Shown here one piece after another: positions 13,916-62,386 of a DNA stretch of 64,000 nucleotides (its first letter is position 1; the number at the start of each line of letters is the position of its first letter). Under the pieces are notes generated by a model. The model was not told the origin of the DNA. It ran no database searches and saw nothing but the letters and a program-made list of their open reading frames with translations. The stretch comes from Candidatus Zixiibacteriota bacterium (GTDB lineage Bacteria > Zixibacteria > MSB-5A5 > UBA10806 > 4484-95): contig JAGGSN010000187.1 of NCBI GenBank assembly GCA_021159005.1, positions 6,972 through 70,971 on the forward strand, written 5' to 3'. The position numbers and the translations under genes are program-made.

Positions 13916-13984
13916 CGCCCGATGGAATAGCAGGTAAGCCGATTCATCTCGCTTAGTTGCGAACGAACGCAACATTAAAACGTA

Positions 13985-14017
13985 GGGGCGTCCACCTCAG
14001 GAGGATGCCCTCTTTTT
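13985..14017 (+). terminator. intrinsic terminator after rplS
   Basis: GGGGCGTCCacctcaggaGGATGCCC stem followed by CTCTTTTT. Confidence 0.6.
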
Positions 14018-14633: not shown

Positions 14634-14682
14634 TATTTATCGGATGCTGAGGCTTTGCCGCGTGATAGATAATTTCAGGCAG

Positions 14683-14721
14683 TGTTAGTTCATAGTCCGC
14701 CTAAGGCGGATGAACTGACAC
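14683..14721. repeat. family-C long hairpin repeat (…TCAGTTCATAGTCCGCCTAAGGCGGATGAACTGACAC), copy 1, plus partner motif ACCTGCCTGAACAGTTAAATG at 14748-14780
   Basis: inverted repeat around a CCGCCtaaGGCGG core; near-identical copies at 17922 and 29265. Confidence 0.7.
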
Positions 14722-14865
14722 GTTTTACTACACAAAATCGGCAGGTTACGTTTCACTACGACCTGCCTGAACAGTTAAATGAGGGGCAGACGGGGACGTC
14801 TGCCGCCCACGCGAATCCTTGTCCACCATAGGCGGACTTAGGTTGTTGAAAAAGCAGCAACACCT

Positions 14866-14898
14866 CTCTTGTTACCAAGCGCTGCTTGGTAACAAGAG
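14866..14898. repeat. perfect 15-bp stem hairpin CTCTTGTTACCAAGC-gct-GCTTGGTAACAAGAG
   Basis: read directly; exact reverse complement arms. Confidence 0.7.
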
Positions 14899-15060
14899 GG
14901 CGTATCCGCCTGAGGCGTCCTTGTCTGCCAACAACGAATAAAAACCTTTTATTGTCATTTCTTATTATATATACTACTTTTAACGGTTGACATATATCCT
15001 AATGTGTCAACTTTTGAATAAAACACGCTCCGGATAATTTTCAAGGCTGGAGACTAATAA

Positions 15061-16555: not shown

Positions 16556-16600
16556 GAGGGCGTATGCAATACGAGGGCGTATGCAATACGCCCCTACGCG
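16556..16600. repeat. family-B hairpin repeat (GAGGGCGTATGCAATACGCCCCTACGCG), 1.5 tandem copies
   Basis: GGGCGTAT-gca-ATACGCCC perfect 8-bp stem. Confidence 0.75.
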
Positions 16601-16612
16601 AACGGTGTTTCA

Positions 16613-16667
16613 GTGGCTGGTGTACGTCCTCCTTTATAGTGGCTGGTGTACGTCCTCGTGCACCAAC
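16613..16667. repeat. family-A repeats: truncated copy then full copy
   Basis: ggctggtgtacgtcctcc…ggctggtgtacgtcctcgtgcaccaac followed by caataagtt as at 28039. Confidence 0.75.
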
Positions 16668-16676
16668 AATAAGTTC

Positions 16677-16746
16677 AGGGCGTATGCAATACGCCTCTAC
16701 GCGCAACGGCATTTCAGTGGTTGGTGTATGTTCTTGTGCACCAACT
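16677..16746. repeat. composite B + A unit (B 16677-16704, A-variant 16718-16746)
   Basis: same B-spacer-cagtgg-A arrangement as 16574-16667 and 27970-28038. Confidence 0.7.
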
Positions 16747-17370: not shown

Positions 17371-17832
17371 ATGGTAATGTCGGATTTTGATAGAAATATT
17401 GCCTTGGCTAAGTTCAAATCTTTTCTGGCGGAAAAAGGGTTGAAACTTACCGCTGAAAGGCTAATCATATTAGAGGAATCATTAGCCACCGAGGGGCATT
17501 TCGAGGCGGATGACCTTTTGATGATATTAAAAAATAAAGGCCGCAAAACATCGCGGGCGACTGTCTATCGGACTCTGGATATTATCGCTTTAGCTGGAAT
17601 TCTCCGCAAGGTTTATCTTGGCGATGCGCCGGTGCAGTTCGAGAAAATTACCGATGAGCCCCAGCATGACCACATGATTTGCCAGAAATGCGGCGCCAAA
17701 ATCGAATTTCATCTGCCCGAACTAAGCGAACTTCAAGAACAGCTCTGCGATGAACATGATTTTACCATGAAAGCCTATAGTCTGCAAATTTACGGTATAT
17801 GTTCTAATTGTTCGGAAAATAAGAGCGTTTAG
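17371..17832 (+). CDS. fur: Fur family transcriptional regulator
   Basis: winged-helix N-terminus, HDHMICQKCG, CSNC metal-binding motifs. Confidence 0.8.
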   Translation: MVMSDFDRNIALAKFKSFLAEKGLKLTAERLIILEESLATEGHFEADDLLMILKNKGRKTSRATVYRTLDIIALAGILRKVYLGDAPVQFEKITDEPQHDHMICQKCGAKIEFHLPELSELQEQLCDEHDFTMKAYSLQIYGICSNCSENKSV

Positions 17833-17866
17833 GGGTGTCCGCCTGAGGAGGACGCCCTCTTTTTTA
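17832..17866 (+). terminator. intrinsic terminator after fur, covarying homolog of the rplS terminator
   Basis: GGGGTGTCCgcctgaggaGGACGCCC then CTCTTTTTT. Confidence 0.6.
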
Positions 17867-17921
17867 TTATTCCCCTCTTGAGGGAGGTTAGGGGTATGTT
17901 ATTAACGCAAAATTTTATGTT

Positions 17922-17962
17922 GTGTCAGTTCGTAGTCCGCCTAAGGCGGATGAACCGGCACT
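17922..17962. repeat. family-C long hairpin repeat copy 2, plus partner motif at 17988-18021
   Basis: tgtcagttcgtagtccgcctaaggcggatgaaccggcac … cgtttcgctacgcatgcctaaacagttaaatg. Confidence 0.7.
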
Positions 17963-18099
17963 TTTTGCTTGATAAGAATATCGCCAGGTCACGTTTCGCT
18001 ACGCATGCCTAAACAGTTAAATGTTCTGAAAATAAAATGGGGAAGCTCCTATTTTACTAAAAGATTGACCGTTAATACAGTTATCTATATATTAAATAC

Positions 18100-25863: not shown

Positions 25864-25893
25864 AAAACCTCCTGAAAATGGTAGTTATTTTGT

Positions 25894-25920
25894 GGCTGGT
25901 GTACGTCCCCGTGCACCAGC
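25894..25920. repeat. family-A hairpin repeat
   Basis: ggctggtgtacgtccccgtgcaccagc. Confidence 0.75.
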
Positions 25921-27888: not shown

Positions 27889-27999
27889 GAGGGCGTATGC
27901 AATACGCCCCTACGCGGAATAGCATGCGAGGGCGTATGCAATACGCCCCTACGCGGAATAATAGCATGCGAGGGCGTATGCAATACGGCCCCTACGCGG
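27889..27999. repeat. three tandem family-B repeats (39-42 bp period), no unique spacers
   Basis: gcatgcgagggcgtatgcaatacgcccctacgcggaata x3. Confidence 0.8.
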
Positions 28000-28011
28000 A
28001 ACAGTAATTGT

Positions 28012-28038
28012 GGCTGGTGTACGTCCTCGTGCACCAGC
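28012..28038. repeat. family-A hairpin repeat
   Basis: ggctggtgtacgtcctcgtgcaccagc then caataagtt. Confidence 0.8.
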
Positions 28039-29047: not shown

Positions 29048-29264
29048 TGAAACCTCCTGTTGTTATCGTCTGATAATTAATTAATCAATAATCATGCCAA
29101 AATCGCTAATTCTGTAACATGCAGTCTTTCAGGGAGATATGGTTTTACGTAAAAATGTCGGTTGCTGTTATGCACAATATTTGTTCGTTTGGCAACTATA
29201 GTTGTGCATGGCTATTATTCACATTGCAGGGAAATCCGAGCCGCCTAAACATTTGATTCGGGGT

Positions 29265-29304
29265 TGTGTCAGTTTGCAGTCCGCCTAAGGCGGATGAACT
29301 GACA
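29265..29304. repeat. family-C long hairpin repeat copy 3
   Basis: tgtgtcagtttgcagtccgcctaaggcggatgaactgacaca. Confidence 0.7.
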
Positions 29305-29566
29305 CATATAGCGAAGACAGGAACCACTGCCTGATTCCGGTAATATAAAAGTATCAATGTTGATAGGGAAATATTCCTGACAACGCTTGAATTAATCACT
29401 CCCTGATAATTTTTTAAATTTTGTAAAAACAAAATAATATCAACTTTGTTAATTGTGGTTAGGTTATTCTATATAATTGTGATTCATAGTCTTAAATGGA
29501 ATTATTAATGTTAAGCAATTGGCTTGCCAAACCGATAAAATATTTTAAATGTTTTAAAAAAAGTTC

Positions 29567-29716: not shown

Positions 29717-29807
29717 ATTAAACAGAATATGGTTTGCCGAGTGTAGAAATTATTATTGCAGTTCGGTGATTAAATAATGAATTTATGTGGCAGGAGAAGG
29801 ATGACTG

Positions 29808-31016
29808 ATGGCCAAGGAGAAATTTGAGCGAACGAAACCGCATGTGAATGTAGGTACGATAGGTCATGTTGATCATGGCAAGACTACATTAACGGCGGCG
29901 ATGACGATGATATTGGGTCGCAAGGGTCAGGCGGCGGTTCGCGATTTTGATTCGATTGACAATGCTCCGGAGGAGCGTGAGCGCGGCATAACGATAGCGA
30001 CGGCGCATGTTGAGTATGAGACCGATAGGCGTCATTATGCTCATGTTGATTGTCCTGGTCACGCCGATTATGTTAAGAACATGATAACGGGTGCGGCCCA
30101 GATGGATGGCGCGATATTGGTAGTTAGCGCGGCGGATGGTCCGATGCCTCAGACGCGCGAGCATATATTATTGGCACGTCAGGTAGGAGTTCCTTACATA
30201 GTTGTATTCATGAACAAGATAGACCAGGTAGATGATCCTGAGTTATTAGACTTGGTGGAGCTTGAGGTACGGGATTTATTGAGTCAGTATCAATTTCCGG
30301 GTGATGACATTCCGATAATTCGTGGTTCGGCATTAGAGGCTATGAATCGCGGCGCTGATGAGAGCGTACCTTATGATGATCCTGCTTTTAAGTGTGTGCA
30401 TGAGTTGATGGATGCGGTAGACAGCTATATACCGGAGCCGAAGCGTGATATTGACAAGCCGTTTTTATTGCCGATAGAGGATGTATTTTCGATAACGGGT
30501 CGAGGTACGGTAGGAACGGGTCGAGTTGAGCGCGGCAAGATAAAGACCGGTGATCCTGTTGAGCGTGTTGGTGTTAGGGAGACTCGCAAGACGGTAGTAA
30601 CGGGTGTTGAGATGTTTCGGAAGATATTGGATTATGCTCAGGCGGGCGATAATGTAGGTTTGTTATTGCGCGGAGTAGATAAGAATGATCTTGAGCGCGG
30701 CATGGTTTTGGCGGCGCCTGGCAGTATTAAGCCGCACAAGAAGTTTAAGGGAGAGGTATACATTTTGACGAAGGAAGAGGGTGGTCGTCACACGCCGTTT
30801 TTCAATGGTTATCGTCCGCAGTTTTATTTTCGGACGACGGATGTAACAGGTACGGTGAAGCTTCCGGAAGGTGTTGAGATGGTAATGCCTGGTGATAATG
30901 TAACAGTAGAAGGCGAGTTAATAACGCCGATAGCGATGGAGAAAGAGCTTCGTTTTGCTATCCGTGAAGGCGGCCGCACCGTAGGCGCCGGCGTTATTAG
31001 CGAAATAATAGAGTAA
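29808..31016 (+). CDS. tuf: elongation factor Tu (copy 1, tufB-type position)
   Basis: [25 protein letters not shown]; 402 aa; identical to the copy at 45482. Confidence 0.95.
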
Positions 31017-45417: not shown

Positions 45418-45481
45418 ATAGGGACGTTATTTTTATTTTTTAGTGATTTGATAATGGAAAATAAAGTTAAGGAGATGACTG

Positions 45482-46690
45482 ATGGCCAAGGAGAAATTTG
45501 AGCGAACGAAACCGCATGTGAATGTAGGTACGATAGGTCATGTTGATCATGGCAAGACTACATTAACGGCGGCGATGACGATGATATTGGGTCGCAAGGG
45601 TCAGGCGGCGGTTCGCGATTTTGATTCGATTGACAATGCTCCGGAGGAGCGTGAGCGCGGCATAACGATAGCGACGGCGCATGTTGAGTATGAGACCGAT
45701 AGGCGTCATTATGCTCATGTTGATTGTCCTGGTCACGCCGATTATGTTAAGAACATGATAACGGGTGCGGCCCAGATGGATGGCGCGATATTGGTAGTTA
45801 GCGCGGCGGATGGTCCGATGCCTCAGACGCGCGAGCATATATTATTGGCACGTCAGGTAGGAGTTCCTTACATAGTTGTATTCATGAACAAGATAGACCA
45901 GGTAGATGATCCTGAGTTATTAGACTTGGTGGAGCTTGAGGTACGGGATTTATTGAGTCAGTATCAATTTCCGGGTGATGACATTCCGATAATTCGTGGT
46001 TCGGCATTAGAGGCTATGAATCGCGGCGCTGATGAGAGCGTACCTTATGATGATCCTGCTTTTAAGTGTGTGCATGAGTTGATGGATGCGGTAGACAGCT
46101 ATATACCGGAGCCGAAGCGTGATATTGACAAGCCGTTTTTATTGCCGATAGAGGATGTATTTTCGATAACGGGTCGAGGTACGGTAGGAACGGGTCGAGT
46201 TGAGCGCGGCAAGATAAAGACCGGTGATCCTGTTGAGCGTGTTGGTGTTAGGGAGACTCGCAAGACGGTAGTAACGGGTGTTGAGATGTTTCGGAAGATA
46301 TTGGATTATGCTCAGGCGGGCGATAATGTAGGTTTGTTATTGCGCGGAGTAGATAAGAATGATCTTGAGCGCGGCATGGTTTTGGCGGCGCCTGGCAGTA
46401 TTAAGCCGCACAAGAAGTTTAAGGGAGAGGTATACATTTTGACGAAGGAAGAGGGTGGTCGTCACACGCCGTTTTTCAATGGTTATCGTCCGCAGTTTTA
46501 TTTTCGGACGACGGATGTAACAGGTACGGTGAAGCTTCCGGAAGGTGTTGAGATGGTAATGCCTGGTGATAATGTAACAGTAGAAGGCGAGTTAATAACG
46601 CCGATAGCGATGGAGAAAGAGCTTCGTTTTGCTATCCGTGAAGGCGGCCGCACCGTAGGCGCCGGCGTTATTAGCGAAATAATAGAGTAA
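45482..46690 (+). CDS. tuf: elongation factor Tu (copy 2, tufA-type position)
   Basis: protein identical to copy 1; nucleotide identity extends from ~10 nt upstream of ATG to the stop. Confidence 0.95.
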
Positions 46691-61945: not shown

Positions 61946-62328
61946 AATGCCGCTATATTAGTATTTTGTTTTAACCCAAGTTTTTGCAGTAGAAGTTTAT
62001 TATAGCAGTGATTATCACATAAAGCATTGCAATGAATCGATATCATTACACCATTTTAGCTCGGTTTACTAAGCGGTGCTTGGCAGCCAGGGAAAATAAC
62101 CTCACAGATAAAGTGAAATATTAGAAAACTGTCTTAATACTATTACAATCGTCAACATGCCCCTAAATCTCCTCTCAAGAGGGGGACTTCGTTAACATAT
62201 CACAAATGAGAATTGCCATAAAACCCTAAATCCTCCGCCATTTACGGGGGACTTTTAGATTGCATAGCCATATAACGTGTTAGCGCAAATATTATTCCTC
62301 TCTCGAGAGGGGTTAGGGGTGTGTTATG

Positions 62329-62386
62329 ACTGGTGTACGTCCTCGTGCAAAAGCGTCGCGGCTGGTGTACGTCCTCGTGCACCGGC
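62329..62386. repeat. two family-A hairpin repeats (truncated + full) adjacent to prfB 3' end
   Basis: gactggtgtacgtcctcgtgcaa … ggctggtgtacgtcctcgtgcaccggc. Confidence 0.75.

Follow-up and report, generated by a model that had tools for sequence, protein, structure and literature searches.

Downstream of the rnhB gene of a Candidatus Zixiibacteriota bacterium, an intergenic hairpin of some 40 nt is followed by a shorter conserved motif, and a similar arrangement recurs after fur and near a tRNA-Thr gene within the 64,000-nt stretch of DNA that was analysed (hereafter the window). The question raised by this repeat, called family C, is whether it represents a small structured RNA or a miniature kind of mobile DNA, both of which had been put forward in a preliminary description of the locus. 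Its copies in the window are named c1 (after rnhB), c2 (after fur) and c3 (near tRNA-Thr), and loci outside the window are given as L followed by a number.

Anatomy of the family C doublet

The repeat and its three reported copies are real, as the 22-mer AGTCCGCCTAAGGCGGATGAAC occurs at 14694, 17934 and 29278, each time on the + strand, where none is expected from dinucleotide-preserving shuffles. Copies c1 and c2 can be aligned across about 112 nt and have in common a 5' flank (AATTT..), hairpin 1, an AT-rich spacer, hairpin 2 and a tail (TrAACAGTTAAATG), which bears out the hairpin-spacer-partner layout attributed to c2 as well as the 27 nt counted between hairpin and partner in c1 (Table 1). 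Hairpin 1 (40 nt) is built of a 10-bp outer stem, a 3-nt bulge, an inner stem GTCCGCC/GGCGGAT and a TAA loop, and hairpin 2 (28 nt) reads GGCAGGTy...CTAC-GACCTGCC. A covariance model (CM) built from c1, c2 and L051 detects the three copies with the scores listed in Table 1, and no further family C copy in the window.

Some details had to be revised. The sequence of c1 is TTAGTTCATAG and not TCAGTTCATAG (TTAGTTC, not TCAGTTC), and c3, rightly described as a third hairpin, is more than a hairpin, since it is followed by a decayed partner. The fragment CCTAAACA noticed upstream of c3 is found at 29244-29251, and the outer right arm of c2 is indeed degraded, with one A.C mismatch and one G.U pair. 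When folded as RNA, c1 reaches -40.6 kcal/mol (z = -4.1) and c2 does no better than shuffles (z = -1.2), owing to the A.C mismatch in hairpin 1 and to the broken hairpin 2; the copies therefore differ in their state of decay. In c1 only, TTCAGGCAG (14674-14682), upstream of hairpin 1, is fully complementary to CTGCCTGAA (14764-14772) in the 3' arm of hairpin 2, a pairing that might close off the entire doublet or else form at the expense of hairpin 2; TTCAGGCAG may also be a fragment of another unit.

Table 1. Location of family C copies and their parts, of other palindromic repeats and of genes for REP-associated tyrosine transposases (RAYTs) (window coordinates unless a locus is named).
Feature	Location	Strand	Remarks
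Copy c1, full doublet	14670-14781	+	rnhB-MatE spacer; CM match 119 bits at 14680-14780
c1 unit 1 (hairpin 1)	14682-14721	+	GTGTTAGTTC / bulge ATA / GTCCGCC-TAA-GGCGGAT / GAACTGACAC
c1 unit 2 (hairpin 2)	14740-14767	-	GGCAGGTT..CTAC-GACCTGCC
c1 conserved tail	14768-14781		TGAACAGTTAAATG; directly 3' of unit 2
Copy c2, full but decaying doublet	17910-18023	+	between fur terminator and CbiQ gene; CM 102 bits
c2 hairpin 1	17922-17961		GTAG present; one A.C mismatch
c2 hairpin 2	17983-18009		stem broken
Copy c3	29266-29334		hairpin 1 and decayed hairpin 2; CM 49 bits at 29264-29351
c3 unit 1 (hairpin 1)	29266-29305	+	intact; GCAG replaces GTAG; upstream of tRNA-Thr
c3 unit 2 remnant	29316-29334	+	GACAGGAACCACTGCCTGA; cmsearch aligns ends of hairpin 2; interior deleted
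L107 member	L107 13664-13787		same JGI sample; 62 bits, opposite strand 37 bits
L108 member	L108 17174-17274		relative; 38.5 bits, opposite strand 20 bits
Solo unit	L104 2431-2454
REP_B, GTAGGGGCGTATTGCATACGCCC	16575-16597, 16678-16700, 27891-27913, 27930-27952	-	GTAG head and GC-rich palindrome
Repeat GTGGCTGGTGTACGTCCTCGTGCACCAGC	113-141, 16639-16667, 25892-25920, 28010-28038, 62326-62386		GTGG head
Terminator-like family	13983-14017, 17830-17864; L104 16869-16905		GGGGCGTCCrCCTnAGGAGGAyGCCC+T
RAYT genes	L098 4173-4784; L099 4064-4633; L100 1003-1512; L103 4190-4705; L104 10001-10561

The proposed search for further copies with a covariance model was successful. Among the metagenome loci searched, only L051 (106 bits) and L047, which is identical to c3, match the model. 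The former contig is of Zixibacteria origin, its TldD shares 88% identity with the counterpart in the MAG to which the window belongs, and its element sits in a divergent promoter region. By fetching the tldD neighbourhood, two additional members were found in L107 and L108. L107 belongs to the same MAG or to a very close strain, since its TldD (P0242) falls into one cluster (90% identity or more) with the TldD of the MAG (MCD6163534.1). In L108, as in L051, a Por_Secre_tail gene lies upstream of tldD. About five family C loci were thus seen in the approximately 115 kb of this genome that were sampled. Neither half of the element matches viral contigs, and a literature search for the sequence string found none.

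The members of L107 and L108 clarify the architecture. Each of their halves is a short hairpin, CAGGTC-GTAG-TG-AAA-CG-TGACCTG, and within each locus one half is clearly the inverse of the other, both following CAGkTC-GTAG-short hairpin-TGAmCTG, the left half resembling the reverse complement of the right half better than in any of 300 shuffles in both loci; the same comparison is marginal in c1, c2 and L051 (11-16 of 300 shuffles as good). Because these halves are inverted and match the model on both strands, the so-called partner motif is a second, inverted copy of the unit, and unit 2 of c1 accordingly reads CAGGTC-GTAG-TGAAACG-TAACCTG on the minus strand. The consensus unit is 5'-ATTTwA..GTTk..CAGkTC-GTAG-(inner hairpin)-TGAmCTG, and each element holds two inverted copies of it with 11-54 nt of AT-rich spacer between them. 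The window copies stand apart as a subfamily: the tip of their unit 1 has grown, TCCGCC-TAA-GGCGGA (TCCGCCTAAGGCGGA) having replaced about CG-AAA-CG, and unit 1 of L108 carries a different extension, CCCGCAAGGG. On the side of unit 2, GTAG (as CTAC) is found in four of the five intact copies, L107 reading GCAG; in unit 1 the tetranucleotide is GTAG in c2, L051 and L107, ATAG in c1 and GCAG in c3, and unit 1 of L108 is devoid of it (GTCGTGCCC). This GTAG forms the foot of the inner stem but is located within the outer stem, as the 3-nt bulge and one paired G. An orthologous HisKA-CheW operon lies a few hundred nt downstream of the copy in both L107 and L108, which may hold one orthologous, long-lived copy with compensatory divergence, although their upstream genes differ.

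Once homologs from other loci were added, covariation, which had been predicted, became significant. Across six copies, 97% of the cells in both hairpins are paired and 8 of 25 pairs changed on both sides, a result reached in none of 500 shuffles and abolished by sliding the partners, although the alignment was fitted to the covariance model, which somewhat favours the structure. With three sequences only, covariation is not significant (56 of 500 shuffles). The covarying substitutions announced for the inner stem between c1 and c2 do not exist, since GTCCGCC/GGCGGAT is invariant in every copy; c1 and c2 differ in the 3-nt bulge and in one-sided changes of the outer stem. In the given orientation, G.U pairs are common and A.C pairs rare. 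Covariation cannot, however, distinguish an RNA from a DNA reading, because hairpins recognised as DNA also covary.

Genomic setting and distribution

A candidate division Zixibacteria MAG encodes the RNase HII of the window with 100% identity (MCD6163043.1), and the same sequence is also found in JGI 3300016457, ENA ERZ23499350 and Logan SRR14000038. All genes from ffh to beyond purS lie on the + strand, and the neighbours of c1, c2 and c3 are RNase HII, Fur and tRNA-Thr, respectively. Located between rnhB and a MatE gene, c1 starts about 37 nt past the rnhB stop codon (14633) with no terminator between, whereas c3 has a minus-strand gene on one side and tRNA-Thr, about 340 nt further downstream, on the other. 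The placement of the fuller copies right after terminator hairpins therefore holds for c2 (hairpin at 17830-17864) but not for c1, as the hairpin invoked (13983-14017) occupies the rplS-rnhB spacer, some 650 nt ahead of c1.

Every family C copy is strictly intergenic, and the settings vary, including positions 3' of a gene, behind a terminator, in divergent promoter regions and beside tRNA genes. Copies c1, c2, c3 and that of L051 are oriented like the downstream gene, whereas those of L107 and L108 are opposite to the flanking genes. No strain polymorphism by insertion or excision was seen, L001-L005 being identical, and the target-site duplications suggested as a check were not recognisable at either c1 or c2. 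A tRNA-like gene, called by eye, is present on the minus strand of L107 (about 13925-14000), some 150 nt from the family C copy; together with c3, this indicates a possible tendency to sit near tRNA genes. A stretch of 300 nt at 29800-30099 is 100% identical to 45474-45773 and corresponds to the starts of two tuf (EF-Tu) copies, one of which belongs to a tRNA-Thr / tuf / tRNA-Trp cluster.

Six related Zixibacteria, with rnhB 66-75% identical, keep the synteny rpsP-rimM-trmD-rplS-rnhB, and five of them also keep MatE...fur...cbiQ. Family C is absent throughout the 3-20 kb fetched from these six relatives: no copy occupies the rnhB site in any of the six, nor the fur site in the five with contigs extending to fur (L098-L100, L102 and L103). 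In L098, L099 and L103, where no additional ORF intervenes, the rnhB-MatE spacer measures 162-255 nt vs. 427 nt in the window, and L101, the closest relative, exhibits unrelated sequence over the 142 nt following rnhB. The presence of family C is lineage-specific, and repeats account for a rnhB-MatE spacer more than twice as long as in the relatives.

Palindromic neighbours and the RAYT of the lineage

The window is rich in further short palindromic families, and the genome encloses other GTAG- or GTGG-headed families in the same spacers as family C. REP_B and the repeat GTGGCTGGTGTACGTCCTCGTGCACCAGC often occur in tandem or in mixed arrays, and the rnhB-MatE spacer itself strings together five or more different hairpins. 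Downstream of c1, positions 14782-15060 form a mosaic of at least four palindromic units that do not belong to family C (e.g., GGGGCAGACGGGGACGTCTGCC, GTCCACCATAGGCGGAC and CTCTTGTTACCAAGCGCTGCTTGGTAACAAGAG), two of which recur in similar form at L107 13555-13660, beside REP_B and the family C copy. The hairpins resembling Rho-independent terminators after rplS and fur constitute a repeat family as well, (G)TAGGGGC-GTCCrCC-NNN-GGnGGAyG-CCCTC followed by a T tract, which combines a GTAG/TTAG head with the inner module of family C hairpin 1.

This tip hairpin has a wide distribution of its own. Its exact 19-mer GTCCGCCTAAGGCGGATGA was found at 87 metagenome loci in 77 distinct contexts, taken as a raw count; the flanks are nearly all unrelated, and only L047 and L051 are members of family C. 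The 19-mer caps a further unrelated outer stem in 25 of the 77 contexts, compared to 13.6 expected from permuted flanks, and lies between short direct repeats in 8 of 77 (1.3 expected). A scan of a genome collection with the 21-mer gave one match, in the unrelated context of a Pseudomonadota MAG (L006 1845-1865), where the tip hairpin tops a long stem-loop in a tRNA leader, the tRNA being tRNA-Met by our by-eye reading. Elsewhere, the 19-mer interrupts a tRNA-like sequence (L037, about 633-651), is part of a 23S rRNA-like sequence (L009 1258-1276) or adjoins a truncated RAYT (L057). In the genome studied here, no fewer than two unrelated outer stems carry the tip hairpin: that of family C unit 1 and, with 2-3 substitutions in the tip, that of the GGGGC/GCCCTC terminator-like family. 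It is missing from the ancestral family C unit (L107 and L108). Independent convergence on a very stable stem-loop is the default and plainer explanation of this recurrence. That the 15-19-nt tip (G)TCCGCC-TAA-GGCGGA(TGA) is a module in its own right seems unlikely; if it were one, it might recur through nested REP formation, with a minimal hairpin being copied or inserted at the tip of others, or because a widespread protein binds it at all of these sites.

Relatives of the organism encode a Y1/HUH protein (169-203 aa), the gene of which belongs to a conserved block, lexA-X-Y1-small ORF-dinB. Of three such proteins tested with the NCBIfam model NF047646 for REP-associated tyrosine transposases (cutoff 80), those of L099 and L103 pass with 82.3 and 81.1 bits and the third reaches 77.8 bits, whereas the IS200 model gives 16-31 bits for a cutoff of 55. 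The MAG of the window also encodes a RAYT on L104 (P0131, identical to MCD6163320.1), which scores 79.5 bits on NF047646 (cutoff 80), keeps the HUH and Tyr motifs and was placed in this MAG by its accession block (MCD6163320.1 vs. MCD6163043.1 for rnhB). The block lexA - ORF - RAYT - small ORF - dinB is conserved in five Zixibacteria, adjoining ffh in the relatives and lying on another contig in the window's MAG, and this arrangement fits a vertical, single-copy inheritance. No RAYT was detected inside the window by tblastn, and no second RAYT of the MAG could be identified, by source or accession, among the best 120 homologues.

In the three relatives inspected for it (L099, L100 and L103), the RAYT gene is immediately preceded by a doublet in which about 30-35 nt of spacer separate a GTAG-hairpin from a hairpin-CTAC, and the REP upstream of the L099 gene is identical to REP_B of the window. 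Similarly, the RAYT of L104 is bordered by REP_B on both sides, with no family C unit adjoining; family C is not the REP family that flanks the RAYT found. A copy of REP_B also lies in frame within the RAYT ORF itself (L104 10291-10313, minus strand), between the HUH and Tyr motifs, where it encodes ..GVCNTPL..; the transposase gene therefore carries its own presumed substrate hairpin. In-frame inserts GVCDTPL or GVFDTPL are found in the RAYTs of L098 and L099 and are missing from two other RAYTs.

Weighing the readings and comparison with known systems

Taken together, family C is probably a non-autonomous extragenic palindromic doublet of the REP/BIME/REPIN type in a Zixibacteria genome. On this reading, an ordinary type of element has turned up in another host, and no new RNA gene is involved. 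Its layout, with heads directed outward (GTAG ... CTAC) and a short spacer, is that of RAYT-associated doublets, by analogy with which we infer that a RAYT mobilises family C. The units would fold as single-stranded DNA hairpins, of which a Y1 (HUH) REP-associated transposase, either the RAYT found or another Y1 encoded in an unsampled part of the genome, would recognise the GTAG and the hairpin, nicking and rejoining single-stranded DNA. The doublet would spread in this manner as a non-autonomous element and its copies would then decay, the solo units and the damaged c2 and c3 representing presumable decay products. Where transcripts read through, a secondary use as RNA hairpins may have been acquired.

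A primary role as RNA, i.e., as a 3'-end stabiliser, terminator, leader or 3' UTR-derived sRNA kept by selection on the RNA, is in our opinion unlikely. The position of c1 close behind the rnhB stop codon, with no intervening terminator, would suit such a role, as would the short U tract after hairpin 1 in c1 (GUUUU) and c2 (UUUUU), but this tract is missing from c3, L051, L107 and L108. The strong RNA fold of c1 also speaks for RNA, whereas c2 lies behind a strong terminator and folds poorly. Both hairpins are kept by compensatory changes, with G.U pairs common and A.C pairs rare in the given orientation, and a promoter-like site precedes c3 (29189-29218); however, promoter and terminator scans revealed nothing conserved between copies, and with Rfam 15 the sole window features to attain the gathering score are two tRNAs, with no match at the elements even at E <= 10. 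The contexts are heterogeneous, two members run opposite to their flanking genes, and the element is missing after rnhB in six relatives and after fur in five. Moreover, its two-fold inverted symmetry has no obvious RNA rationale and is characteristic of DNA elements. The suggestion of a small structured RNA family, either a 3' UTR-derived sRNA or a toxin-antitoxin RNA, is thus not supported.

Among DNA elements, a conventional MITE derived from a DDE-transposase IS and moved in trans via terminal inverted repeats appears very unlikely. A length of about 110 nt, inverted ends ATTTwA..GTT.. at both termini in the c2 alignment and an intergenic, lineage-specific occurrence would agree with it, but the inverted repeat spans a complete unit, each of the two halves is a hairpin by itself and bears GTAG, units also occur singly, target-site duplications are not recognisable at c1 or c2, and no matching or parent IS was present in the window or the fetched loci (which include about 115 kb of this genome). 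The label "MITE-like" hence remains acceptable in the broad sense of a short, non-coding, multi-copy, intergenic and lineage-specific element, though not for a transposon-style MITE with terminal inverted repeats and target-site duplications. Slightly less probable still is a palindrome-associated element derived from IS200/IS605, or the orphan end of a TnpB omega-RNA, with hairpins at its left and right ends. Subterminal hairpins, the lack of target duplications and the Y1 transposase relatives of the lineage are shared with such elements. The end hairpins of IS200/IS605 have the same orientation on one strand, whereas the two GTAG units of family C are inverted; in addition, neither TnpB nor an IS200-type TnpA is encoded nearby, the Y1 proteins score as RAYTs and far below the IS200 cutoff, and no omega-RNA-like Rfam match was obtained.

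Several other likenesses were considered and discarded. A K-turn or C/D-box in hairpin 1 was rejected on inspection, as the positions that need tandem G.A are G.U and U-A; the resemblance of CCGCCUAA to hammerhead or twister ribozymes lacks the core motifs and an Rfam match; an integron attC (GTTAAAT being close to GTTRRRY) was dismissed in the presence of housekeeping genes on the flanks, with neither inverse core nor cassette context; and a CRISPR-like array does not apply, the partner motif not being a repeat of the hairpin.

The significance of the REP/BIME/REPIN-type reading is modest. The uncultured phylum Zixibacteria has a typical REP/RAYT landscape in which several palindromic families coexist, family C being a doublet family of nested hairpins with an exchangeable tip, and REPIN biology gains an example with a syntenic RAYT from beyond the Proteobacteria. 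In annotation, it is advisable to mask these elements as repeats instead of listing them as sRNA candidates. The L107 and L108 copies, possibly orthologous and with compensatory evolution, could serve to test DNA- vs. RNA-level selection on the hairpin structure.

REPs were described as imperfect stem-loops of 35-40 nt with a 5' GTAG, often inversely paired as BIMEs, and RAYT, whose genes occupy a single locus and are flanked by BIMEs, binds the hairpin and the GTAG as single-stranded DNA and cuts nearby (PMC3479197). REP doublets, or REPINs, form a non-autonomous unit dispersed by vertically inherited single-copy RAYTs (PMC5581495; PMC3337134). As in the BIMEs of E. coli, which are processed by TnpA-REP/RAYT, each family C unit is an autonomous bulged hairpin that in most copies bears GTAG 5' of its stem, the partners are unequal in length and in sequence like the Y and Z REPs, and the elements cluster with other palindromic units in the intergenic spacers of a genome that has a RAYT. 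On the contrary, the GTAG of family C is enclosed by an extra outer stem instead of lying at the foot of the hairpin, its sequence is unrelated to the enterobacterial Y/Z consensus and belongs to a Zixibacteria host, and the RAYT found here is flanked by another REP family. With the Pseudomonas REPINs of Bertels and Rainey, family C shares an inverted doublet of one short unit plus spacer as the likely mobile unit, singlets that look like decay products, intergenic copies and a genome with a single-copy, syntenic and apparently vertically inherited RAYT; however, the two REPs of a REPIN pair into one long hairpin, whereas each family C unit folds on itself. A further comparison is REP_B of the same genome, which differs from family C by its hairpin sequence, by the lack of an outer stem and by its demonstrable adjacency to a RAYT, with GTAG...CTAC doublets upstream of the L099 gene, but which similarly presents a GTAG head followed by a GC-rich palindrome and occupies the same intergenic arrays.
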